IMG/VR virus record: IMGVR_UViG_2534681704_000005 | Coordinates: 1-36,391 of that record | Source of the DNA: a virus | Taxonomy: Duplodnaviria; Heunggongvirae; Uroviricota; Caudoviricetes | Direction: 5' to 3' (one strand) | Length of the DNA stretch: 36,391 bases | In this document: piece by piece, positions 1 through 36,391 of the stretch | How the letters are laid out: each line of letters opens with the position of its first letter | Numbering within the stretch: position 1 is the stretch's first letter | Made by a program: the position numbers and the translations under genes | The notes under the pieces: generated by a model | Told to the model about the DNA's origin: nothing | Databases searched by the model: none | What the model saw: only the letters and a program-made list of their open reading frames with translations

Positions 1-1254
1 ATGCTGGAACAAATGGGCATTGCCGCGAAGCAAGCCTCGTATAAATTAGCGCAACTCTCCAGCCGCGAAAAAAATCGCGTGCTGGAAAAAATCGCCGATG
101 AACTGGAAGCACAAAGCGAAATCATCCTCAACGCTAACGCCCAGGATGTTGCTGACGCGCGAGCCAATGGCCTTAGCGAAGCGATGCTTGACCGTCTGGC
201 ACTGACGCCCGCACGGCTGAAAGGCATTGCCGACGATGTACGTCAGGTGTGCAACCTCGCCGATCCGGTGGGGCAGGTAATCGATGGCGGCGTACTGGAC
301 AGCGGCCTGCGTCTTGAGCGTCGTCGCGTACCGCTGGGGGTTATTGGCGTGATTTATGAAGCGCGCCCGAACGTGACGGTTGATGTCGCTTCGCTGTGCC
401 TGAAAACCGGTAATGCGGTGATCCTGCGCGGTGGCAAAGAAACGTGTCGCACTAACGCTGCAACGGTGGCGGTGATTCAGGACGCCCTGAAATCCTGCGG
501 CTTACCGGCGGGTGCCGTGCAGGCGATTGATAATCCTGACCGTGCGCTGGTCAGTGAAATGCTGCGTATGGATAAATACATCGACATGCTGATCCCGCGT
601 GGTGGCGCTGGTTTGCATAAACTGTGCCGCGAACAGTCGACGATCCCGGTGATCACAGGTGGTATAGGCGTATGCCATATTTATGTTGATGAAAGTGTAG
701 AGATTGCTGAAGCATTAAAAGTGATCGTCAACGCGAAAACTCAGCGTCCGAGCACATGTAATACGGTAGAAACGTTGCTGGTGAATAAAAACATCGCCGA
801 TAGCTTCCTGCCCGCATTAAGCAAACAAATGGAGGAAAGCGGCGTGGCATTACACGCAGATGCAGCTGCGCTGGCGCAGTTGCAGACAGGCCCCGCGAAG
901 GTGGTGGCTGTTAAAGCGGAAGAGTATGACGATGAGTTTCTGTCATTAGATTTGAACGTCAAAATCGTCAGTGATCTTGACGATGCCATCGCCCATATTC
1001 GTGAACACGGCACACAACACTCCGATGCGATCCTGACCCGCGATATGCGCAACGCCCAGCGTTTTGTTAACGAAGTGGATTCGTCCGCTGTTTACGTTAA
1101 CGCCTCTACGCGTTTTACCGACGGCGGCCAGTTTGGACTGGGTGCGGAAGTGGCGGTAAGCACACAAAAACTCCACGCGCGTGGCCCAATGGGGCTGGAA
1201 GCACTGACCACTTACAAGTGGATCGGCATTGGTGATTACACCATTCGTGCGTAA
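1..1254 (+). CDS. proA: gamma-glutamyl phosphate reductase (host gene)
   Basis: 417-aa ORF starting [21 protein letters not shown], recognised as E. coli ProA; followed by thrW as in the E. coli proBA-thrW locus. Confidence 0.95.
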
Positions 1255-1368
1255 ATAAAACCGGGTGATGCAAAAGTAGCCATTTGATTCACAAGGCCAT
1301 TGACGCATCGCCCGGTTAGTTTTAACCTTGTCCACCGTGATTCACGTTCGTGAACATGTCCTTTCAGG

Positions 1369-1444
1369 GCCGATATAGCTCAGTTGGTAGAGCAGCGCAT
1401 TCGTAATGCGAAGGTCGTAGGTTCGACTCCTATTATCGGCACCA
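1369..1444 (+). tRNA. thrW: tRNA-Thr (anticodon CGU)
   Basis: 76 nt GCCGATATAGCTCAGTTGGTAGAGCAGCGCATTCGTAATGCGAAGGTCGTAGGTTCGACTCCTATTATCGGCACCA with cloverleaf features and CCA end; integrase gene starts 14 bp downstream. Confidence 0.95.
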
Positions 1445-1458
1445 TTAAAATCAATAAG

Positions 1459-2622
1459 TTACACATCATTAGTACCTTCCTTATTTTTTGACTGGGACAA
1501 ATTTGGGACCGATGGGTTCAGGATCGAGTCTATTTGCCGTGCGTGTTCGGTAAGGTGATTAGGTGCAAGGTGAGCATATCGACGAACCATTTCGATAGAC
1601 TCCCAGCCTCCCATTTCCTGTAACACTGACAACGGGACTCCGGCTTGAACCAGCCAACTTGCCCAGGTGTGTCTCAAGTCGTGAAATCTGAAATCATCAA
1701 TACCAGCCCGTCTCAGCGCCGCTTTCCAGGCTGTGTTTGCGTCATACCGCATCTTCCTTACTGTTGGCGCTTTCGTTCCGTCTGGTTTGGTACAGCTTTC
1801 CTTGTACACAAATACCCAACGGTGATGATTCCCGATTTGTTTTTTCAATACGCGACATGCAGTATCATTCAGCGCAACGCCAATTGCGCGGTTTGATTTA
1901 CTCTCTTCCGGGTTTATCCATGCCACCCGGCGCTGCATATCTATTTGTTGCCATTCAAGGTTGATGATGTTCGAGCGTCTTAAGCCTGTTGCCAGTGCAA
2001 ATTCAACAACAGACTTTAATGGCTCCGGACATTCATCAATCAGCCTTTGTGCTTCATGGGGCTCCAGCCAGCGGATCCGTTTATTCTTTGGTTGAGGCAC
2101 TTTAATAATTGGTGCCTTATCCAGCATTTTCCATTCACGCTCTGCGGCTCTTAGTAGGGCCTTTATAAATGAAAGATGCGTAGCCTTCGTTGCAACGGAC
2201 GCTGGTTTTGGCGTGTATTCTGGAACAGGTTTCCCTTTTTTTCTGCATGCTTCTGCCCTGAGTTTCCAGTTTTCCTCATGACGCCGGTTTGTCATTTTCT
2301 GCATTGCTGAATAAATTTTTGATTCAGTAATGTCTCTTAGTTGCATTCCTGCGAAATGTTGAAGCCAGAATCCGATCCGGCTTTTGTCATCGTCCAGTGA
2401 TTTTTTATGTGCTTTCTCTTCAAGCCACCTGACACACGCTTCCTCGAACGTTATATCAGGTATTTCACCAAGTTTGCTGACCCGCCATGCTTCAGCCTTT
2501 AGCTTGTCATGGAGTTCTGTCGCCTGCCTTTTGTCCTTTGTTCCAAGAGACTGTTTAAATCTTTTACCGTTCGGCAATGTGAAACTGGCGTACCATATTT
2601 CACCTCTGCGGAAGAGTGACAT
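1459..2622 (-). CDS. int: Tyrosine site-specific integrase (P22/SfV-like)
   Basis: 387-aa ORF starting [23 protein letters not shown]-terminal HDLRHTW...RYAH tyrosine-recombinase motifs; directly adjacent to thrW. Confidence 0.92.
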
Positions 2623-2849
2623 TTTCTTTCCTCTGTTATGCCATCACCCGCGCTCACCTGGACAGTATGCAGCGGAGACTGAAGAGCCGCAATGCAGGCT
2701 TGTCGTGTTGTGAGGTAAGGAGATTTATTCTTAGTGGGATCTTTGCGTGTTGCCTGAAGACGCCCTGTGCGTATCCAGTTAATGGCAGTCGGTCTGGATA
2801 TCTTGAGAAAATGACAGGCCTCATCGAGTGTGAGGCTGTATGGCTCCAT
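2499..2849 (-). CDS. xis: Excisionase (Xis, P22-like), 116 aa
   Basis: Internal Met of the 144-aa ORF ([31 protein letters not shown]) with SD AGAGGTG 5 nt upstream; winged-helix excisionase-like; ATG overlaps stop of upstream gene (TAATG). 3' end overlaps int by about 124 bp. Confidence 0.75.
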
Positions 2850-3154
2850 TATTTCACCTCTTGCTGTGACATTGTTGAAAAATGGATACCAGCTCGTTGC
2901 TGCCAGACGATCCAACCGAGAGTCATATCCCATGCCATGTATTCGTTATTGCCGTTTTTTGCTCTCCGACGATCTACTAAGTCACCGAAACGCTTTTCCA
3001 TGAATAATTCATAAGCTTCGCGTTCATCTGGTTCTACTTCCAGAGATAGGAGTGCGATTTCATAAGCACGGCGCTCAATATCGTCTCGCACGTCAAGGCT
3101 GCTGATACGCTCTTTAATTTCTTTAATCAGTTCTTTGTCGGTAAAAGTGGTCAT
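2849..3154 (-). CDS. Hypothetical early protein, 101 aa (YfdT-like by size and position)
   Basis: ORF with TAATG coupling at both ends; acidic small protein; no recognisable domain. Confidence 0.6.
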   Translation of the reverse strand: MTTFTDKELIKEIKERISSLDVRDDIERRAYEIALLSLEVEPDEREAYELFMEKRFGDLVDRRRAKNGNNEYMAWDMTLGWIVWQQRAGIHFSTMSQQEVK

Positions 3155-3516
3155 TATGCTCCAGCCTCCGGTGCTTTTGGCATTACTGCCCAGTGAGTGA
3201 TATTGACGTTTTCAAGGTCCCCGACCTGAAATGTCCACTGCCATTCTCCGGTTTCTTTTTGTCCCCAGGTGTACCAGAGAGAACGCCAGCCAATTAGCCA
3301 GCCTTCTCCGTTAGCATCGAATAACAAAACACTTTCATTTGCTGGTGGCAGTTCAGTGGACACTGGTATTACTTTGTTTTCCTGTGCTGCACATTTAGCT
3401 TCAAGCGCATCGAATTTACGCACCAGGTATTCAGCATCTGTTTCATTTACTTTCAGATCTCGCGGTACACATCTCCCACGAAGAAACCCTTCCATTTCGA
3501 AAACATTCATGCGCAT
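3154..3516 (-). CDS. DUF551-like phage protein, 120 aa (YfdS-like)
   Basis: C-terminal NITHWAVMPKAPE resembles the DUF551 ITHWMPLP motif; start overlaps stop of upstream gene. Confidence 0.7.
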   Translation of the reverse strand: MRMNVFEMEGFLRGRCVPRDLKVNETDAEYLVRKFDALEAKCAAQENKVIPVSTELPPANESVLLFDANGEGWLIGWRSLWYTWGQKETGEWQWTFQVGDLENVNITHWAVMPKAPEAGA

Positions 3517-4043
3517 TTGCGTAACTCCGATAACTCGTTAAAGCGTTCCATAAACATCCCGTAGGCATGGCCCGGTGCCAGTGGAATCACGTTGAACATC
3601 TCTGTTGCCGGGATACCTTCCAGTACAGGCCAGAAAGAGCCATCATCAAGCCCGAGATCGCGGCGTTCGGTTGCCAGCATGATGAGATCGGCATATTTCA
3701 CGGGCGTACTCATAACTGGGGGTAACCCGTATTTCTCACGGATTACGGCGTCTATTTTTTCTTCCATTTGTTTATAGTCAGGAAGAAGGCGTTTCAGTGG
3801 TGCGGGAATGTCCTGGCAATACGCTTCTGTTGCATCATGCATTAACGCTTCAAAAGCAAATTCCTGCGGCACCAGCTGGCTGCAAAGAACCGCATGTTGG
3901 GCGACGCTGTAGAAGTGCGAAAGATGACCGGCAAAGCGACAGATATTTGAAAGGGAAACCGCGATATCGTTAATATCGATGTCGTCTTTATTTATCCTGT
4001 CATAATAAAAATGCTTCCCGGAAAAAGTTTTAATAAATGACAT
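3507..4043 (-). CDS. HD-domain phosphohydrolase, 5'-deoxynucleotidase-like, 178 aa (YfdR-like)
   Basis: H...HD motif (ALMHDATEAY); start taken at MSFIKTF (ATG 4043) with SD GGAGA 5 nt upstream rather than the GTG at 4070. Confidence 0.8.
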   Translation of the reverse strand: MSFIKTFSGKHFYYDRINKDDIDINDIAVSLSNICRFAGHLSHFYSVAQHAVLCSQLVPQEFAFEALMHDATEAYCQDIPAPLKRLLPDYKQMEEKIDAVIREKYGLPPVMSTPVKYADLIMLATERRDLGLDDGSFWPVLEGIPATEMFNVIPLAPGHAYGMFMERFNELSELRKCA

Positions 4044-5060: not shown

Positions 5061-5423
5061 TTAACGACCTGCTGCGCGGAGTCTTCCGTCAGGTTCACCG
5101 GCAAGAGTCAGCAACTGTCCCTGGTCTTCCTGCAGAATAGTCAGGCGACCACCGCGATTGACATACATCGGCGTTTCGGTGGTGTCTTCTTCGGAAATTT
5201 TCCCGCGGTTAGTCGGGCGAACATATGAGAGTTTGTGTTTGATTTTCACTCGGTTCTCATCAAACGGTTCGATTTCTAGGTTGAGCGAGACCTTACCTTT
5301 GGTTTTCGTGTTCATCACACCGGAAGCGACTTCACTGAGAACTGCGCCGATTTTGGTTTCAAATACGCCGCCGTCCAGCTCCCCGATAAATGCCTGCACA
5401 TCAGTACTGCGTTCGCTAGCCAT
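5061..5423 (-). CDS. Hypothetical early protein, 120 aa (YfdP-like)
   Basis: Start taken at MASERSTDVQAF with SD GAGGAG 7 nt upstream; the 226-aa ORF in the track extends upstream through a low-complexity, likely non-coding stretch. Confidence 0.7.
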   Translation of the reverse strand: MASERSTDVQAFIGELDGGVFETKIGAVLSEVASGVMNTKTKGKVSLNLEIEPFDENRVKIKHKLSYVRPTNRGKISEEDTTETPMYVNRGGRLTILQEDQGQLLTLAGEPDGRLRAAGR

Positions 5424-5471
5424 TTTGCTGCTCCTCATCATATCGACCCTGCAAGGTCGGTTAGTTTCTCC

Positions 5472-5560
5472 ACAAAACAGAGAAGAACACCTGCGGTGAC
5501 TGCCGCCCGGATGGATTGGGTTATGAGCCCGTCGTCCGGTGATGCTCTTCTCTGTTTTGT
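5472..5560. repeat. 18-bp imperfect inverted repeat (ACAAAACAGAGAAGAACA / TGCTCTTCTCTGTTTTGT) flanking a 53-bp GC-rich spacer
   Basis: Arms at 5472-5489 and 5543-5560 match 17/18; lies in a roughly 420-bp ORF-poor GC-rich region upstream of the YfdP-like gene. Confidence 0.5.
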
Positions 5561-5861
5561 AAAAAGGACGGTACCAGCCGGAAGCAAGGGTACAAACTGG
5601 TACCGCCAGGACTACACACAGCATAAAGTTGTGGTGCCGGGTGCCTCCCGGTGCCTGGCGAAGGTTGCACACCAGACGGGTGGGTATCCACAGAAGGTCG
5701 ACTGTCAGCCTCAACCTTAACCCGCGTGCGCTGAGCCGCATTCACCACAACGCTAAGGATTCTCTCTGGTTGAAAATACTTAGCTGTTATGTGCCTGTCT
5801 TTTCACCACTTCAGGCTCGGTGGTATCTTGGTGTTTTCATATAGCCAAGAAGGAAATAGTT

Positions 5862-6053
5862 ATGACCAAAGAAGAAAAAATTCTTTATTTATTCCAACTA
5901 TCGGTTAAGACTCACACTGCATATCAGACTGCTGCCATGACATCAGATAAAAATTACAGTACGTCAGAAAACCCGATAGACGACATAAGCAAGCTTTACG
6001 ATAAGTTCGAAGCACTACTCGATAAAAAGTTTGCTGAGGCTGGGCTTGAGTGA
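5862..6053 (+). CDS. Small hypothetical protein, 63 aa (MTKEEKILYLFQLSVK...)
   Basis: ATG 5862 with SD AAGGAAA 5-6 nt upstream; AT-rich; 3' end overlaps the convergent 58-aa ORF by 39 bp. Confidence 0.4.
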   Translation: MTKEEKILYLFQLSVKTHTAYQTAAMTSDKNYSTSENPIDDISKLYDKFEALLDKKFAEAGLE

Positions 6054-6191
6054 TTGTTGAATAATCGACAAAACCCAACTTAAATTTTCGTCAGTGGGCT
6101 CGATGCCATGTGCGGTGAGCTCACTTTTCAAAACTCCAAGCAATTCAGAGCTGATTTTCAATATATCTGCTTGATTTCTAACTATTCCCAC
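6015..6191 (-). CDS. Small hypothetical protein, 58 aa (GTG start)
   Basis: GTG at 6191 preceded by AAGGGAGG with 5-nt spacer, much better than the ATG at 6221; no recognisable domain. Confidence 0.4.
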   Translation of the reverse strand: MGIVRNQADILKISSELLGVLKSELTAHGIEPTDENLSWVLSIIQQSLKPSLSKLFIE

Positions 6192-6280
6192 TTTTTCCTC
6201 CCTTGGTCTACGCGCGGTCATGTTTTACGCCCAAACGACTTCACAGTTATTGTTTAAAATCTGGACTTTCATTTTGTTCT

Positions 6281-6484
6281 TTAACCTCCAGATTTCCGCG
6301 CATCTAAAGGCGCATTCTCATTTGGTGTGAACTGAATAGTTGTGCTGATATTGATTAATGCCCCGACACACAAGACTACGCACTCAGAGCAGATAGCAAC
6401 TTCATCTTTTCCGCCTTTGGCGATGATTTTTTTTGCCTGCAGCTCGTTTGCGCCACAAAACGAGCATGTGAAATAACGGTTCAT
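6281..6484 (-). CDS. Stand-alone ClpX-type C4 zinc-finger (ZBD-like) protein, 67 aa
   Basis: MNRYFTCSFCGANELQAKKIIAKGGKDEVAICSECVVLC matches the CSFCG...ICxECVxLC pattern of the ClpX N-terminal zinc-binding domain; first ORF downstream of the predicted pL. Confidence 0.6.
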   Translation of the reverse strand: MNRYFTCSFCGANELQAKKIIAKGGKDEVAICSECVVLCVGALINISTTIQFTPNENAPLDARKSGG

Positions 6485-6623: not shown

Positions 6624-6686
6624 CAACTTTATGTGGTTTGAACGAGTAGCCAAGGAGTGCAAGGATTATCAAAAAAAGGAGGTTGT

Positions 6687-7577
6687 ATGGAAGACGCGCT
6701 TTACGCTTTTAATTACACACAGAACCGGGACAAGTTATTTGCTAACTTGATTAGCATCATTGATGGAATCATTGCAGATGGAGTTGTCCGTGAAGAGGAG
6801 GTTCTTTACTTAGATACATGGTTACTTGAAGCAAAGCAGATTATCAATAATGGAGTTATAAAAAGTCTATCAGCACGGGTGTCGGATATTCTTGCGGATG
6901 GAATAATCACATCAGAAGAACGTGATGACCTTAAAAATAGCCTTCTCCAAATACAGAGGGAAATTCTTGATATCCCTGAAATTGATTTTTACTCCAAGGA
7001 TGTAGATGTCCATTTACTTAATGGACTATGTAAAGGATTAATTGCTGATCGGAACTTAACTCAAGAAGAAATAAGATATCTTAATTGGTGGCTTGAGCAA
7101 AATGGAGCTTTGAAGAACAACTACCCAGGAAAAAAACTTTATGCACTTGTAAAGGAAATTCTTAAAGATGGTGTTATTACTGAAGATGAGAGTTTAACTC
7201 TACATAAGGCATTAGTAGACTTCACAGGATGTGACTTGGAAAGTGGGGTGGTGGATGGTTTGGCGACTAGGCTGCCTATTGATGTAGGGGCTTCGATAGA
7301 GTTAGAGGGTAAAACCTATTGTCTTACAGGCACTTTTGTTGCAGGAAAGAGAGCCGTAGTTGAAAATTTGATTAAAAATGCTGGTGGGAACATCAGTAGT
7401 GGAATTACTCAAAAGTTGGATTTTTTAGTAATTGGGACGCTTTCCTCCCGTGATTGGAAATTCTCAAGTCACGGAAGGAAGATCGAAAAGGCTATATCTT
7501 ATAGGGATGATAATGGTGCAAAACTTAAAATTATTTCTGAAGAAATGCTTTTCGATGCATTACCAAGTTCGCGATGA
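6687..7577 (+). CDS. Accessory protein with four TerB-like repeats and a C-terminal BRCT-like domain, 296 aa
   Basis: Strong SD AAGGAGG (6677-6683) before ATG 6687; repeats IADGVVREEE, LADGIITSEER, IADRNLTQEE, LKDGVITEDE; C-terminus GKTYCLTGTF...FLVIG...LKIISEEMLFDAL resembles BRCT; AT-rich; 3' end overlaps the cI stop by 18 bp (convergent). Confidence 0.8.
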   Translation: MEDALYAFNYTQNRDKLFANLISIIDGIIADGVVREEEVLYLDTWLLEAKQIINNGVIKSLSARVSDILADGIITSEERDDLKNSLLQIQREILDIPEIDFYSKDVDVHLLNGLCKGLIADRNLTQEEIRYLNWWLEQNGALKNNYPGKKLYALVKEILKDGVITEDESLTLHKALVDFTGCDLESGVVDGLATRLPIDVGASIELEGKTYCLTGTFVAGKRAVVENLIKNAGGNISSGITQKLDFLVIGTLSSRDWKFSSHGRKIEKAISYRDDNGAKLKIISEEMLFDALPSSR

Positions 7578-8246
7578 CCAGAATACCCTACCTATAACAT
7601 GAATTCTGGCTCGTCTATCTTCAAAGGTGAGTATTTCATCTGGGTACTCATCTTTGTTGAAGCTTCTAAGAATCAAGCCACCGTCAGGTAAGTTGATAAG
7701 TATTTTAACCCTTAGCAATACACCATCTCGTACGGCATAAAGATCGCCATCACGAATAGGAACGGTTTGAGAAATATCAACGGCAACAAGATCTCCATTA
7801 TTGAGAACCGGTAATAAACTGTTCCCCCATATTTTTACGATCTTGGCATTAGATGCACATACGCCAGATTTTCTCAAATCTGCTCTTCTTAATGGAAACC
7901 AGTCAATAGCTGATTCAACTATTTCAGCCAGACATCCGTTACCTGCCGATAACTCGACATCTAAAACAGGAATGTTTACGAAAATATCGGGGTCTAATGC
8001 GGTGCTTTCTGCTTCTTTTACAACAAGATCAGGTATGGATGCGTTGTCTTCAATACCAAGTTGTAACCACTTTTGTGATACACCTAAAACTTTTGCAATT
8101 TCTTTAATTTTGCGCGGTTGTAGAGTTTCGCCATTCTCTATTTTGGCTACAGATTGTTGTGAAAGTCCAATTTTTTCAGCTAGTTGAGCTTGGCTCATGC
8201 CAGCTTTCTCTCTACCTATCTTTAATCGTTCTGCCAGTGTTTTCAC
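7560..8246 (-). CDS. cI: CI-type prophage repressor (XRE HTH + S24 LexA-like autopeptidase)
   Basis: N-terminal HTH (MSQAQLAEKIGLSQQSVAKIENGE), Ala-Gly cleavage site (LSAGNG), Ser (WGNSLLP) and Lys (LLRVK) spaced as in LexA/CI; GTG start with SD GAGGGA; divergent from cro. Confidence 0.9.
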   Translation of the reverse strand: MKTLAERLKIGREKAGMSQAQLAEKIGLSQQSVAKIENGETLQPRKIKEIAKVLGVSQKWLQLGIEDNASIPDLVVKEAESTALDPDIFVNIPVLDVELSAGNGCLAEIVESAIDWFPLRRADLRKSGVCASNAKIVKIWGNSLLPVLNNGDLVAVDISQTVPIRDGDLYAVRDGVLLRVKILINLPDGGLILRSFNKDEYPDEILTFEDRRARIHVIGRVFWSSRTW

Positions 8247-8298
8247 AACATATCCCTCTCTTTTTTGATGAGGTTACAACTTTATGTTTTAGCTTTCC

Positions 8299-8314
8299 AA
8301 CACCTAAAAGTTGT
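8299..8314. promoter_or_regulatory. OR operator-like 16-mer AACACCTAAAAGTTGT
   Basis: 15/16 identical to the OL copy; lies between the divergent cI and cro starts with further ACAAC/GTTGT repeats. Confidence 0.4.
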
Positions 8315-8340
8315 GATAAAAGTTGTTAATGTTGTATTCT
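8311..8340 (+). promoter_or_regulatory. Candidate pR: -35 TTGTGA, 18-bp spacer, -10 TATTCT
   Basis: Best sigma70-like match upstream of cro, overlapping operator repeats; hexamers are each 4/6 to consensus. Confidence 0.3.
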
Positions 8341-8381
8341 TGCAACTCGTAACAACTTAACTACCTAAAAAGGAGAAAGCT

Positions 8382-8630
8382 ATGACACCTGAGCAATTAG
8401 CCTTATCGGAGGCAATCGCTCTGGCTGGTGGTCAATCAGAATTGGCTCGGAAGCTCACAGCCAGCAGCGGTCATTTAGTAAAGCAACAACATGTCTGGAA
8501 CTGGTTGAACAGAGAAAAGCGTCCCCCTGCAAAGCTCTCGATATTCATTGAAAAGACCACTGGCATATCAAAAGAAAAATTACGTCCAGATATTTTTCAA
8601 AAGATTAAAGATTCATCAGATGAAAAGTAA
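8382..8630 (+). CDS. cro: Cro-like HTH regulator (YdaS/Cro family), 82 aa
   Basis: SD AAAAAGGAG before ATG; small HTH protein divergent from cI. Confidence 0.8.
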   Translation: MTPEQLALSEAIALAGGQSELARKLTASSGHLVKQQHVWNWLNREKRPPAKLSIFIEKTTGISKEKLRPDIFQKIKDSSDEK

Positions 8631-8652
8631 CCACAGTTTTAAGGAGATAGCC

Positions 8653-9204
8653 GTGGGTAAGCATCACTGGAAAGTAGAAAAACAGCCTAAGTGGTACGTG
8701 AAAGCTGTCAGAAAAACTATCGCGGCGTTGCCGGGTGGTTACGCTGAAGCTGCTGACTGGCTGGATGTAACAGAGAACGCATTATTTAACCGCCTTCGTG
8801 CCGATGGCGATCAGATTTTCCCGCTGGGATGGGCAATGGTTTTACAGCGCGCAGCTGGCACTCACTACATTGCGGATGCTGTCGCACAGTCTGCTGGTGG
8901 GGTGTTCGTATCGCTTCCTGAAATTGAGGAAGTAGAGAACGCCGATATAAACCAGCGCCTGCTGGAAGTCATCGAACAGATCGGGAGTTACTCAAAGCAG
9001 ATTCGTTCGGCAATCGAAGATGGGGTAGTGGAGCCACACGAGCAGACAGCAATTAACGACGAGCTGTATCTCTCAATTTCGAAGCTGCAGGAGCATGCAG
9101 CACTGGTCTACAAAATCTTTTGCATTTCAGAAAGTAATGACGCCCGCGAGTGTGCAGCTCCGGGCGCCGTGGCGTGTCGTGACTGTGGAGAAACTAACGC
9201 ATGA
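8653..9204 (+). CDS. Hypothetical regulatory protein in the cII position (YdaT-like?), about 183 aa
   Basis: GTG 8653 with SD AAGGAG 6 nt upstream (alternative ATG 8620 has no SD); function assigned by position only. Confidence 0.5.
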
Positions 9205-9539
9205 ACAGTTTAACAACACACTACCGTCGCTCGCAACTGATTGCGCTTCCTGTACCGGGTGGAAAAGCGAAGGTGGAGTATTGCTATGCAGTTAATGTAC
9301 CTGGTGACAGGGAAATTGTAACCCACAGCTTTGCTGAGTGGGCTGTGGGTGATTTCAACCGGCAGAAGGAGACAGTCCTTTGCGACAAGTTAACCGCTGG
9401 TTCAAAGATCACTACGGAGTGCCCGTCAGAGTCATTCGTTGGGAGCCGGAAACACAACGGGTTATCTACCTCCGCGAAGGCTATGAGCATGAGTGCTTCA
9501 GCCCGCTCGAACAGTTTCGTCGTAAATTCAGGGAAATAG
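9201..9539 (+). CDS. Hypothetical protein, possibly frameshifted (see findings)
   Basis: ATGA-coupled to the upstream gene; C-terminal half is Ser-rich low-complexity while the -1 frame (9353-9559) reads protein-like and couples to the next gene. Confidence 0.4.
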
Positions 9540-9548
9540 AGGTCGGTC

Positions 9549-10490
9549 ATGAGCACTAAATTAACCGGCTATGTATGGGATGGTTGCGCTGCATCAGGCA
9601 TGAAATTATCCAGCGTGGCAATTATGGCCCGCCTGGCTGATTTCAGTAATGACGAAGGTGTGTGCTGGCCATCAATTGAAACCATTGCCCGTCAGATTGG
9701 CGCGGGGATGAGTACCGTCAGAACGGCTATCGCACGGCTGGAAGCAGAAGGCTGGTTAACGCGTAAGGCGTGTCGCCAGGGTAACCGCAATGCGTCGAAT
9801 GTTTATCAGCTTAACGTTGCGAAGCTTCAGGCAGCGGCATTTTCTCAACTGTCAGATTCTGACCCGTCAAAATCTGACGCATCAAAATCTGACCCGTCAA
9901 AATTTGATGCGTCGAAATCTGGCAAAAAAGCGGGTTTTCACCCGTCAGAATCTGGCGGGGATCCGTCAGTAAAATCAAAACATGATCCGTCAGATAAAAA
10001 AACTTCTCGTCCGGACGCTTCGCAACCGGACACGCAGACGGCTGAACAGGAGTTTTTAACTCGCCATCCTGATGCGGTTGTATTCAGCCCTAAAAAGCGC
10101 CAGTGGGGAACGCAGGATGATTTGACCTGCGCACAGTGGCTCTGGAAAAAAATCATCGCCCTGTACGAGCAGGCCGCCGAATGTGACGGCGAGGTGGTTC
10201 GTCCCAAAGAACCGAACTGGACAGCCTGGGCAAACGAAATTCGCCTGATGTGTGTGCAGGATGGTCGTACTCATAAACAAATCTGCGAGATGTACAGCCG
10301 CGTCAGTCGCGATCCGTTCTGGTGCCGTAACGTGCTCAGCCCGTCGAAGCTGCGGGAAAAATGGGATGAGCTTTCCCTGCGCTTATCGCCGTCCGTCAGC
10401 ACGTACACCGAAAAACGCGAAGACCCGTACTTCAAAGCCAGTTACGACAACGTGGACTACAGCCAGATCCCGGCAGGATTCAGGGGGTGA
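9549..10490 (+). CDS. Replication initiator (lambda O-like) with internal iteron origin, 313 aa
   Basis: N-terminal winged-helix DNA-binding region; tandem repeats in the coding sequence appear as SDPSKSDASKSDPSKFDASKSG in the protein, as with ori-lambda inside O. Confidence 0.75.
   Translation: MSTKLTGYVWDGCAASGMKLSSVAIMARLADFSNDEGVCWPSIETIARQIGAGMSTVRTAIARLEAEGWLTRKACRQGNRNASNVYQLNVAKLQAAAFSQLSDSDPSKSDASKSDPSKFDASKSGKKAGFHPSESGGDPSVKSKHDPSDKKTSRPDASQPDTQTAEQEFLTRHPDAVVFSPKKRQWGTQDDLTCAQWLWKKIIALYEQAAECDGEVVRPKEPNWTAWANEIRLMCVQDGRTHKQICEMYSRVSRDPFWCRNVLSPSKLREKWDELSLRLSPSVSTYTEKREDPYFKASYDNVDYSQIPAGFRG
9864..9993. repeat. Iteron array (putative ori): four tandem 15-bp repeats (CCGTCAAAATCTGAC-like) plus three CCGTCAG copies and an AT-rich tract
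   Basis: Repeat starts at 9864, 9879, 9894, 9909, then 9942, 9963, 9987; followed by an A-rich stretch. Confidence 0.6.
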
Positions 10491-10492
10491 GC

Positions 10493-10981
10493 ATGAGTCT
10501 TTTGAATGACGTTCAGAAATTCATTGAAGCCCATCCGGGCTGTACTTCCGGAGATATTGCGGATGCTTTTGCCGGTTACTCACGGCAGCGCGTTCTGCAG
10601 TCAGCAAGCAAGTTACGTCAGAGTGGGCGTGTGGCTCACCGTTGTGAAGGGGATACACGCAGACATTTCCCGCGCCTGACTGAGAGAGCGCAGGAGGCGG
10701 AACCGCAACCAGTTCGTGAAACCAGACCTGTGCGCAATTTCTATGTCAGCACTAACGACCCGCGGGAGATTTTGTGCCTGACCCGCCAGGCTGAAGAACT
10801 GGAGTCCAGGGGCTTATACCGTCGTGCTGCAACGGTGTGGATGGCGGCATTCCGTGAAAGCCACTCCCAGCCAGAACGAAACAATTTTCTGGCGCGTCGT
10901 GAACAGTGTTTACGGAAAAGCAGCAAGCGCGCTGTATCGAGTGATGAGTGGTATCTGTCAGGGAATTACGTGGGGGCGTAA
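10493..10981 (+). CDS. Hypothetical protein, winged-helix N-terminus with PerC/ANR-like C-terminal motif (tentative)
   Basis: ATG 10493 after SD GGGGGTGA; C-terminal LYRRAATVWMAAF resembles the PerC/ANR family motif; stop overlaps next start. Confidence 0.55.
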   Translation: MSLLNDVQKFIEAHPGCTSGDIADAFAGYSRQRVLQSASKLRQSGRVAHRCEGDTRRHFPRLTERAQEAEPQPVRETRPVRNFYVSTNDPREILCLTRQAEELESRGLYRRAATVWMAAFRESHSQPERNNFLARREQCLRKSSKRAVSSDEWYLSGNYVGA

Positions 10982-33157: not shown

Positions 33158-34202
33158 ATTTCAGCGCCCGACGCTGGCAGAAAATATCAGTATGCTCCGT
33201 AACGATTTATTCGCCAGGCTGGACGTCAGCGACACGCTCCGGCGCATGGATGAAGACGTGCGGGCAAAGGTGTATGCGGCGGCGCTGCATACGGTTTACG
33301 GTTACATCGATTATCTGGCAATGAACATGCTGCCTGATCTGTGCGATGAGTCCTGGCTGGCGCGACATGCTGCGATGAAACGGTGTCCGCGCAAGGGGGC
33401 CACGGCTGCCAGCGGGTATATGCGCTGGGAAGGTGTCAGCGATGGCCTGAAGGTGACCGCCGGGAGTGTTATTCAGCGCGATGACCTGGTTCAGTACACG
33501 GCAACTGCCGATGCAATCAGCACTGGTGGTGTCCTGCGTGTGCCGATCACTTGCTCAACTACAGGCGCGGTCGGTAACGCTGACGACGGTACGGCATTAA
33601 TCCTGGTCACGCCGGTGAATGGTCTGCCGTCTTCCGGTGTGGCTGACACCCTGACAGGCGGATTTGATACTGAAGAGCTGGAAACGTGGCGCGCCCGCGT
33701 CATTGAGCGGTATTACTGGACGCCTCAGGGCGGGGCTGACGGGGACTATGTCGTCTGGGCTAAAGAAGTGCCCGGCATTACCCGCGCATGGACATACCGA
33801 CACTGGATGGGAACGGGGACTGTCGGTGTGATGATTGCCAGCAGTGACCTGATTAATCCCATTCCGGAAGAGTCAACGGAAACGGCGGCAAGACAACATA
33901 TCGAGCCACTGGCCCCAGTGGCAGGCTCTGATTTGTATGTATTCAGGCCGGTGGCGCATAAAGTGGATTTTCATATCCGCGTGACGCCGGACACACCGGA
34001 AATACGGGCTGCCATCACCGCCGAGTTGCGTTCGTTCCTGCTGCGTGATGGTTATCCGCAGGGAGAACTGAAGGTGTCACGTATCAGTGAAGCGATTTCC
34101 GGTGCGAACGGGGAATACAGCCATCAGTTGCTTGCCCCGGCGGACAATATCTCCATTGCAAAAAATGAGCTGGCGGTTCTGGGGACGATTTCATGGACGT
34201 GA
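33144..34202 (+). CDS. Baseplate J-like protein (Mu gp47)
   Basis: 352-aa ORF in canonical order. Confidence 0.85.
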
Positions 34203-34777
34203 CAAACGATGATTATATCCGTCTGTTGTCGGCACTGTTGCCGCCCGGTCCGGCGTGGTCAGTCAGCGATCCGGCGATTGCCGGTGCGGCACCGTCATTA
34301 ACCCGCGTTCATCAGCGTGCGGATGCCCTGATGCGGGAGCTGGATCCGCGCACCACCACTGAACTGATAAACCGCTGGGAGCGTCTGTGCGGTCTGCCGG
34401 ATGAATGTATTCCCGCAGGGACACAGACCCTTCGCCAGCGTCAGCAACGGCTGGATGCGAAGGTTAATCTGGCGGGCGGCATCAATGAGGATTTTTATCT
34501 TGCACAGCTTGCTGCCCTGGGCAGACCAGACGCCACTATCACGCGATACGATAAAAGCACGTTCACCTGCTCATCGGCCTGTACTGACGCAGTGAATGCG
34601 CCGGAATGGCGGTATTACTGGCAGGTCAACATGCCAGCCGCCACCAACACCACCTGGATGACATGTGGCGCTCCCTGTGATTCCGCACTGCGTATCTGGG
34701 GCGACACCGTTGTCGAGTGCGTGCTTAACAAACTCTGCCCTTCGCATACCTACGTAATTTTTAAATATCCGGAGTAA
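34193..34777 (+). CDS. Tail protein (Mu gp48 / YmfQ-like)
   Basis: 194-aa ORF following the J-like gene. Confidence 0.75.
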
Positions 34778-34780
34778 TCC

Positions 34781-35674
34781 ATGCATCGTATAGACACGAA
34801 AACCGCGCAGAAGGATAAGTTCGGCGCGGGTAAGAACGGTTTTACCCGTGGTAACCCCCAGACCGGCACACCTGCCACCGATCTGGATGATGACTACTTT
34901 GACATGTTGCAGGAGGAGCTTTGCAGCGTTGTGGAGGCATCCGGTGCCAGCCTGGAGAAGGGGCGGCACGACCAGCTGCTTACCGCGCTTCGTGCGCTGC
35001 TGTTAAGCCGCAAGAATCCGTTTGGTGATATCAAATCGGATGGCACGGTGAAAACGGCTCTCGAAAACCTTGGTTTACCGGAATTACTGAACCTGAAGAG
35101 AGATAAGACAGATAACAGATTCTCGACTTTCGTGTTTGAGTCTGGCAGGCCAGAGGATAGTCTTTGGCTGGCATATGATGAACAGAAGAAACAATTTGCT
35201 ATCGCTTTTAAAGTCGACGGTGCCGCAAAATACGTATATCTGCAAAACAAAGGAGGAAGTCTTGCTCTTGAAGAACAGGTAACGGCGCAGGCAATACTGA
35301 CAAAACTGCTTCAGGTTGATGGTTCCGGGTCAGGGCTTGATGCCGATTTGGTGCGCGGGCTACCTGCTGATTTTGGTAGTTCACCGTCAACTAATGGATA
35401 TCAGAAGTTACCGTCCGGCATGATTATACAGTGGGGGATGTCAGAGGTTACATCAACGGATATCTACGTAAAATTCCCGGTGGCTTTCACAAGACCACCA
35501 CTGTTTGTCGGCGAGTCTTCGCCGGGCGGCGGACAAACGACATCAGTGTGGACAGCTAATGCTATAACGAATGTCGGATTTAATGCCACACAGATTTGCG
35601 TGTTAAGCAACACATCAGACAGAGTGCTCCTTCCCGATAATAACGCCACCACCTGGCTAGCGATAGGATTTTAA
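34781..35674 (+). CDS. Tail fibre protein (constant N-terminus plus variable C-terminus; contains invertase crossover site)
   Basis: Conserved tail-fibre N-terminus ([40 protein letters not shown]); gix-like site at codons about 93-101. Confidence 0.8.
35058..35083. other. gix/hix-like 26-bp site-specific inversion crossover site
   Basis: Minus strand reads TTCCGGTAAACC-AA-GGTTTTCGAGAG; left half is 11/12 to the Mu gixL half TTCCTGTAAACC as recalled from memory. Confidence 0.6.
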
Positions 35675-35676
35675 TT

Positions 35677-36111
35677 ATGGATATGTGCTTCTCAGCCACA
35701 ACGTTGGCGTTTTATCCTCTGGATATGAAAGACGGCTATATCGCCGCCGGAACATGGCCGGACGATATCGTTAAACTGACGGATTCAGAGCGTGATAAAT
35801 ACTGGATGAAACCGGCTCCGGAAGGAAAAGAACTCGGTAGTGTCAAAGGTCGACCTGCCTGGGTGAATGTCACTCTGCCTACCCATGAGGAATTGGTGCA
35901 TCAGGCGGAAGTCAAAAAAGTATTTCTGATATCAGAAGTGAAATCGGAAACAGAGATGCTACGGACAAGACTGGCGCTCAAACGCATCAAGCCAGATGAA
36001 GAAGCACTTTTGAACGCCTGGTTTGATTATCTGGACGCACTGGAAATGGTTGATATTTCCAGTGCTCCAGATATTGAATGGCCTACGCCTCCGGCTGTTC
36101 AGGCCAGATGA
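35677..36111 (+). CDS. Tail fibre assembly protein (Tfa)
   Basis: 144-aa ORF after the fibre gene; C-terminus shares a motif (DYLDAL..VD.S.APDIEWP) with the convergent copy. Confidence 0.8.
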   Translation: MDMCFSATTLAFYPLDMKDGYIAAGTWPDDIVKLTDSERDKYWMKPAPEGKELGSVKGRPAWVNVTLPTHEELVHQAEVKKVFLISEVKSETEMLRTRLALKRIKPDEEALLNAWFDYLDALEMVDISSAPDIEWPTPPAVQAR

Positions 36112-36391
36112 TATCCGGCTCGGTGCTGGTATCTGTTGCCGTCACCGCGTCAATGTAATCCAGCACGGCGTTAAGTCGGGTTGTTTCTGCCTGCGTCAGC
36201 TTCCGCCCGGCCTGCAATTTCAGTTGAATCAGACTGATGGAAGCCATTGCAGCATCAATCAGCGACTGGCGCTGTGCTTCTGCCGCGTCTACTGCGGCAC
36301 TATGCTGTGCCTCAGTATCTGTCACCCATTTCTCACCATCCCATTTATTGTATGGCGTTAACGGTGAAAGCGTGACATAACCGTCTTTGAT
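36083..36391 (-). CDS. Second tail fibre assembly protein in inverted orientation (5' end beyond window)
   Basis: Minus-strand frame is open to the window edge (...YNKWDGEKWVTDTEAQHSAA...) and ends ...LNAVLDYIDAVTATDTSTEPDIIWPEQPEA, tail-to-tail with the plus-strand Tfa. Confidence 0.7.
   Translation of the reverse strand: MKDGYVTLSPLTPYNKWDGEKWVTDTEAQHSAAVDAAEAQRQSLIDAAMASISLIQLKLQAGRKLTQAETTRLNAVLDYIDAVTATDTSTEPDIIWPEQPEA

Follow-up and report, generated by a model that had tools for sequence, protein, structure and literature searches.

The question raised by this locus is whether the tail-fibre gene at the right end of an Escherichia coli prophage carries one end of an invertible host-range switch and, if so, which of the known switches it is related to. 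The DNA analysed, hereafter called the window, is a stretch of 36,391 nucleotides that makes up the last 36.4 kb of contig AQEV01000003.1 (GCA_000354795.2, E. coli MP021561.2). A preliminary description of these letters had proposed a switch with the layout of the Mu G and e14 P segments, with a gix-like crossover site inside the fibre gene, two tail-to-tail Tfa genes, and the remaining parts lying just beyond the right edge. According to our analysis, the right end of the window very probably represents one half, the left, of an invertible tail-fibre segment of the Pin type (Din family), located in an apparently complete SfV/e14-like myovirus prophage. The features of the window that bear on this reading are collected in Table 1.

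Table 1. Features at the left end of the window and around the tail-fibre gene (positions are those of the window).
Feature	Position	Strand	Evidence or remark
Aldehyde-dehydrogenase-family gene	1-1254		RefSeq name proA in genomes 100% identical over window 1-3200
tRNA-Thr(CGT)	1369-1444
Tyrosine integrase gene	1459-2622
ORF upstream of the fibre gene	34193-34777		Mu gp48/YmfQ protein
Tail-fibre ORF	34781-35674	+	297 aa; contains the crossover site
Constant N-terminal part of the fibre gene, codons 1-97, common to both orientations	34781-35071	+	Residues 1-101 98% identical to K-12 e14 StfP
Left crossover site, pix/gix-type, 26 bp	35058-35083	+	CTCTCGAAAACC TT GGTTTACCGGAA; exchange at TT 35070-35071
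Variable fibre C-terminus (arm A), residues 98-297, gp53-like receptor-binding tip, fused to the constant part (ON)	35072-35674	+	Pfam Gp53-like_C E = 7.5e-12, residues 209-296
Tfa, tail-fibre assembly chaperone paired with arm A	35677-36111	+	144 aa; Pfam Caudo_TAP E = 7.7e-26; 42% identical to e14 TfaP
Tfa', C-terminal 102 codons, chaperone of the alternative arm	36083-36391	-	Open reading frame of 103 codons between 36083 and the window edge; truncated where the contig stops

Upstream of the fibre gene and of the adjoining Mu gp48/YmfQ gene, the window encodes Mu-like gp47, gp45 and gp44 proteins, a DNA-circularisation protein, the tape measure, sheath, capsid and portal proteins, and the large terminase. 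Because this tail and head gene set is combined with proA, tRNA-Thr and an integrase at the left end, the element in E. coli MP021561.2 is apparently a complete myovirus prophage of the SfV/e14-like type, which has thrW, adjacent to proA, as its integration site. Its position at thrW beside proA is shared with the serotype-converting Shigella phages SfV, SfII, SfI and SfIV, to which the DNA is 96-97% identical through the baseplate genes and the constant part of the fibre gene. Together, the thrW and proA context, the Mu-like baseplate module and the DNA identity to the SfV group place the element among the SfV/e14-like, thrW-integrating myovirus prophages. Indeed, the SfV group, for which a relationship to e14 is described as well, reportedly integrates at thrW, and a myovirus morphology has been reported for SfI (PMC3636060). 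One thrW prophage, that of strain 2013C-4991, is 100% identical to the window over 1-3200 but has a lambdoid tail, and is thus uninformative on the right end.

The palindrome proposed as a crossover site was found where it had been placed, and it is unique in the window. Its sequence is CTCTCGAAAACCTTGGTTTACCGGAA, a 26-bp imperfect palindrome with an AAACC-NN-GGTTT core in which 8 of 13 positions are complementary, as counted from the sequence. A single copy of the core AAACCNNGGTTT is present in the 36.4 kb of the window, where shuffles lead one to expect 0.02. When the window was scored with a Din-type consensus that we wrote ourselves (TTCTCNNAAACCAAGGTTTNNGAGAA, 22 scored positions), this site on its two strands was the only 26-mer with at least 17 of 22 matches, and 30 first-order Markov random sequences yielded none at this level. 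The site had been estimated to lie about 95 codons into the fibre gene; it corresponds to codons 93-101 (A-L-E-N-L-G-L-P-E), with the central TT in codon 97.

For comparison, crossover sites were extracted from K-12 e14 and from phage Mu, and the published table of Din-family sites was added (PMC3241671). Read on the minus strand, the site is TTCCGGTAAACC AA GGTTTTCGAGAG. Its constant-side half, GGTTTTCGAGAG, is identical to the right half of pixL at 12 of 12 positions, while the variable-side half agrees with the left half of gix (TTCCTGTAAACC) at 11 of 12 positions, one base being different. The core is AA in pix, hix, cix and mix and GA in Mu (PMC3241671); the AA read here is thus of the pix/hix/cix type. 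The site also shows the arrangement typical of the Din family, that is two imperfectly inverted 12-bp half-sites (TTC...AAAC.) around a 2-bp core. We therefore classify it, by its sequence, as a Din-family (Hin/Gin/Cin/Pin) crossover site that is a pix/gix hybrid, nearer to e14 pix than to gix. The preliminary description would have been refuted by a failure of the site to match gix/hix; the alignment gave a match. Its label "gix-like" fits the variable-side half, whereas the site as a whole is closer to e14 pix, and the locus is homologous to the e14 P segment and PinE. Moreover, SfV, SfII, SfI and the E. coli prophages that match best share DNA homology with the window only as far as 35076, within the site; SfIV also matches part of the Tfa/Tfa' region.

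The genes downstream of the site are arranged as in invertible segments of the Din family, where two convergent arms are each followed by their own Tfa gene, here Tfa on the plus strand and Tfa' on the minus strand. Both had been called Tfa in the preliminary description, and both assignments hold: the first matches Caudo_TAP, and the second, an open frame that runs off the window, has a full-length form of 197 aa in two near-identical sequences described below (L011 and L001), with a Caudo_TAP match (E = 7e-28) and 62% identity to e14 TfaE. The two genes overlap tail to tail by 29 bp. The relationship that had been noticed between their C-termini amounts to 35% identity over 78 residues. The overall order, a constant N-terminus, the site, a variable C-terminus, Tfa, and an opposite-strand Tfa', is that of e14 and Mu, as had been proposed. 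A scan of 34000-36391 for promoters and terminators gave counts that were not above those of shuffles.

Only 2 nt of the source contig lie beyond the window, so that the other half of the switch could not be read from it. A second assembly with identical sequence, Logan SRR446879, breaks 340 nt earlier, and exact-match scans of genome contigs and viral contigs with the last 52 nt of the window returned no match. The continuation could nevertheless be followed in two near-identical sequences: L011, a Logan contig (ERR2760088) that departs from the window at only 2 of 7611 nt, and L001, the complete genome of TUM9754, whose identity to the final 2.5 kb of the window is 99.2%. Past the window edge both carry a full Tfa' gene, an alternative fibre C-terminus (arm B), an inverted second site with core AA, and a serine recombinase gene; the last three are the parts that had been predicted to lie beyond it. 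In L011, Tfa' is encoded at 7303-7896 on the minus strand, and arm B then extends to the second site at 8358-8383 (TTCTCCCAAACC AA CCTTTTAGAAAA), whose left half and core are identical to pixR at 14 of 14 positions and whose invertase-side half agrees at 9 of 12. In L001 the second site lies at 10287-10312. Since the cores read TT at the first site and AA at the second on the same strand, the two sites are inverted relative to each other; they have only about 17 of 26 positions in common, less than the 16-bp perfect repeats of e14.

The recombinase gene follows the second site after a spacer of 54 bp in L011, and of 54-59 bp across L011 and L001. The L011 invertase (8438-8992, 184 aa) is identical to K-12 PinE at 178 of 184 residues (97%) and 81% identical to Mu Gin. 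Furthermore, the L011 DNA from the second site to the end of pin is 90.6% identical (575/635) to the pixR-pinE stretch of e14, which is experimentally active. The L001 enzyme, of 187 aa, is more distant (55-56% identical to PinE), with matches to Resolvase (E = 3e-36) and HTH_7 (E = 7e-12). The segment measures 2080 bp from core to core in L011. A multi-site system of the kind represented by Min of p15B or by a shufflon was ruled out, as only two sites with at least 15 of 22 consensus matches are present in L011 and in L001. When the segment was inverted in silico, the exchange within codon 97 gave an in-frame fibre in both cases: in L011 a 254-aa protein made of constant residues 1-97 continued by GLGEGAPAIGVPFFWP...VRAK, and in L001 a 270-aa protein, each directly followed by Tfa'. 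The site thus lies inside a fibre ORF whose C-terminus would be swapped in frame by inversion, as in other Din-family segments.

Among known systems, the closest is the e14 P segment with PinE (stfP-tfaP / tfaE-stfE-pinE). The two share a nearly identical constant fibre N-terminus (98% over 101 residues), an identical constant-side half-site and AA core, and the same 29-bp tail-to-tail overlap, found in e14 between tfaP and tfaE. In L011 the resemblance extends to the left half and core of pixR, to the 54-bp spacer and to the PinE-like invertase. Relative to e14, homology breaks off in the first site and picks up again at the second. The variable parts differ: arm A is a 200-residue gp53-like tip with a gix-like half-site, whereas e14 StfP has about 112 variable residues and a pix-like half-site. 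Tfa is 42% identical to TfaP, Tfa' 62% to TfaE, and arm B 52% to StfE. The segment is also longer: its core-to-core length is about 2080 bp in L011, while that of e14, measured in the same way, is 1827 bp (e14 has been reported as 1797 bp). In addition, the e14 element is defective and sits at icd, unlike the apparently complete thrW prophage of the window.

The Mu G segment with Gin (S/U vs S'/U') resembles the locus in architecture, in the Mu-like baseplate genes gp44-48 upstream and in the ...NLGL... encoded by the site in both, as well as in the gix-like variable-side half-site and the 81% identity of the L011 invertase to Gin. It differs in having a GA core instead of AA, a fibre of 504 aa instead of 297 aa with the site at about codon 170 instead of 97, fibre and Tfa proteins that are only 30-35% identical locally to those of the window, and U and U' genes that do not overlap. 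On these comparisons, the homologue of the locus is the e14 P segment with PinE, and not the Mu G segment.

The invertible segments of the H genes of P2-like E. coli prophages offer a third comparison. They contain the very same pair of cassettes, arm A-Tfa and Tfa'-arm B, at 97-99% DNA identity and in both configurations. Their constant part, however, is a fibre of the P2 H type, about 350 residues long, and has the half-site TTCTCGCATACC, and they have another invertase and another tail module. What is new at the present locus is the combination of cassettes, within a long-known system.

Both orientations of the cassettes are found across genomes, which, together with the homology breakpoints inside the site, speaks for its use as an exchange point. 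Arm A is ON in the window and in L001, L003 and L014, and OFF in L004, L015 and L016, and the joints fall at the core; where it is ON in other tail types it is fused to P2-like H genes, and where it is OFF it lies beside invertases. Among P2-like prophages, the configuration H.A + B.I occurs in ZF31 (L003) and TUM9754 (L014), and the configuration H.B + A.I in ZF34 (L004) and in L015, with joints exactly at the core. The thrW prophage remnant L016, with 98.3-98.7% identity to the window, has arm A flipped beside the recombinase; its homology to the window begins at 35070, the first base of the core. Conversely, it is arm B that is ON in strain 30EVA1, where a dusA prophage carries it joined to the constant part. 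In the 90% cluster of the window fibre, ON fusions are found alongside arms in the OFF state, the latter joined at ...G|LPELL. ZF31 and ZF34 were considered as one locus in two orientations, and this was rejected: both strains carry an A.I prophage, ZF31 a second one too, and their reciprocal states thus belong to different prophages and do not represent an inversion caught in the act. The reciprocal configurations are spread over different prophages and strains, and may have arisen by exchange of cassettes and not by a programmed inversion in the recent past.

Enzymes of the Hin/Gin family bind as dimers to the two 26-bp sites; staggered cuts of 2 bp are made at the core, and the DNA is religated after rotation of the subunits. 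Because of the near-identity with e14, inversion by a Pin-type serine recombinase is expected here. A small serine invertase encoded just past the segment would bind the site at codons 93-101 and the inverted second site some 2.08 kb downstream, cleave both at the central AA/TT dinucleotide and rotate the strands, so that the segment would flip. In the sequenced orientation, the 97-residue constant N-terminus is joined to the 200-residue gp53-like tip, arm A, and the gene of its chaperone Tfa comes next. After inversion, arm B, another tip of about 157 residues, would continue the same N-terminus in frame, with the Tfa' gene behind it. Virions of the two states would then carry different receptor-binding tips and may infect different hosts. 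From the precedents of e14, Mu and P1, we infer that the invertase would be active in MP021561.2, that it would depend on Fis and an enhancer, and that inversion would change the host range. For e14 itself, inversion of the P segment is seen in cultures of K-12, which contain its two orientations side by side (PMC4272514).

The alternative that survives best is that the Pin-type switch no longer flips in MP021561.2, the invertase or the second site having been lost or mutated, so that the fibre would permanently carry arm A and the site would only mark an evolutionary boundary between cassettes. We consider this unlikely, even though several observations speak for it. The source contig stops short of the invertase, and frameshifts are annotated in the recombinase genes of DETEC-P61 and 30EVA1, that is in two of the four dusA relatives whose right end was examined, so that decay of the switch is common; the remnant L016 illustrates the decay of such prophages by large deletions. 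In addition, the exact flipped-state fibre predicted from L011 or L001 was absent from a collection of 15 billion proteins in an exact look-up, and thus no flipped copy of this exact element was seen there. Against permanent loss, the nearest relative, L011, has an intact second site and an intact invertase that is 97% identical to the functional PinE, and the prophage in the window looks complete. Moreover, PinE, PinQ and PinR all act on the e14 P segment and flip it, Pin-family invertases of other prophages acting in trans on e14 sites (PMC12529663), and loss of the invertase gene in cis would therefore not necessarily lock the segment. An invertible segment of the Pin type hence remains our preferred reading.

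The hybrid nature of the site leads to a wider proposal that extends the Pin-type reading, which we advance tentatively and regard as improbable. The pix/gix site may make the cassette pair portable, so that invertases of co-resident prophages could shift it between tails as unrelated as the SfV/e14-like and the P2-like ones, and flipped, orphan arm A could be expressed from a leader in the spacer as an adsorption blocker resembling StfE2. If this were true, the switch would serve the lysogen as well as the phage.

A separate alternative is that the segment serves host defence, instead of or besides host range. Flipped arm A would be placed behind a short leader ORF in the spacer beside the invertase and yield an orphan gp53-domain protein like e14 StfE2, blocking the adsorption of other phages. 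There is a precedent, as inversion of the P segment in K-12 creates StfE2, composed of the stfE leader and the gp53-like C-terminus of StfP, which blocks T2 adsorption (PMC12529663). OFF-state arm-A ORFs with spacer-encoded leaders also occur in other genomes, namely P0012, with the e14-like leader MPVSHYLCIFINVG|LPELL..., P0003 and P0004. The spacer of L011, however, has a TAA in frame, three codons ahead of the joint, which would prevent a leader ORF from forming there, and since the prophage appears intact, the host range of its virions is a simpler selective reason. We judge a defence function very improbable for this locus. Finally, a chance palindrome in an ordinary, non-switching fibre gene is excluded, for apart from the shortness of AAACC..GGTTT nothing favours it, and it is contradicted by the rarity of the core and the lack of random 26-mers at this match level, by the exact identity of one half-site to pixL, by the homology breakpoints of many phages and prophages inside the site, and by the second site and invertase in near-identical DNA.

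Since the mechanism of such switches has been known since the 1980s, the locus described here opens no new question. For phage biology, it adds a rare cassette combination to the e14/Pin system, and shows that the same cassette pair serves both SfV-like and P2-like tails. For genome annotation, it illustrates that switches of this kind are systematically mishandled, with fibres split by the annotation pipeline and assemblies broken: two independent short-read assemblies break inside the segment, and half of the switch is therefore lost.

Two minor observations concern the fibre gene. PGAP splits the intact 297-aa fibre into a "pseudogene" and a fragment. The 90% cluster of the window fibre comprises 16 sequences, and the cassette combination is rare.

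In E. coli TUM9754 the cassette pair is present twice, in an SfV-like prophage at dusA (locus L001) and in a P2-like prophage (L014), the two prophages being unrelated to each other. The two copies are 97.3% identical over 2.3 kb (L001 8160-10483 and L014 3976-6295), and this homology begins at crossover site 1 and ends some 110 bp inside the recombinase gene. Such a pattern suggests that cassettes have been traded between co-resident prophages. Prophages that share this constant fibre and cassette system differ in the invertase next to it, of which there are two lineages: the PinE-like type, found on the Logan contig L011, and a second type, found in L001, which shares only 55% identity with it.

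Copies of arm A in the OFF state, that is, lying beside the invertase, are annotated as ORFs that begin with a short leader from the spacer adjoining the invertase gene (P0003, P0004, P0007 and P0012, from the 90% cluster of the window fibre). The joint between leader and arm A reads, for example, MPVSHYLCIFINVG followed by LPELL... These ORFs are direct analogues of StfE2, the e14 chimera of K-12, which reportedly blocks T2 adsorption (PMC12529663). In TUM9754 and DETEC-P61 (locus L002), PGAP annotates the fibre gene as an "stfP pseudogene, missing C-terminus" and a separate "gp53-like domain protein". The 297-aa fibre ORF is unbroken in TUM9754, the one of the two genomes in which it was examined, and the split annotation looks like an artefact of cassette chimeras.

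The invertible segment is in the flipped orientation in L016 (GCA_018806295.1, regions 5062-6390 and 7206-10681), a thrW prophage remnant in which a deletion of about 32.5 kb joins window position 3809 to 36382. What survives is int with a small number of early genes, part of Tfa', and Tfa, arm A and the recombinase. L016 resembles a cryptic element of the e14 type that is still taking shape.

Contig AQEV01000003.1 physically ends 2 nt past window position 36391, and a second short-read assembly, identical in sequence to the window, breaks 340 nt earlier, within tfa (loci L012 and L013). The invertible segment seems to be a place where assemblies break; Tfa ends present in several copies, or a mixture of orientations, may be the cause.

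Coordinates of the features discussed
Feature	Location	Strand	Remarks
Fibre gene	L001 7882-8775; L002 7882-8775		corresponds to window 34781-35674
PinE-like invertase	L011 8438-8992		184 aa
Second-type invertase	L001 10372-10935		187 aa
ORF with C-terminal BRCT domain	window 6657-7577	+	prophage early region; Pfam E = 1.4e-6
S24-peptidase/HTH repressor-like gene	window 7560-8246	-	
Aldehyde-dehydrogenase-family gene	window 1-1254		fills the interval exactly; RefSeq name proA
thrW tRNA-Thr(CGT), attL	window 1369-1444		followed by prophage integrase

Host DNA is found at the left end of the window (1-2622, a stretch including the prophage integrase after attL). The name proA comes from RefSeq, which uses it in several complete E. 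coli genomes; these match window 1-3200 at 100% identity but have other prophages at thrW. Further into the prophage, the BRCT-domain ORF lies just upstream of the repressor-like gene, the two being convergent.
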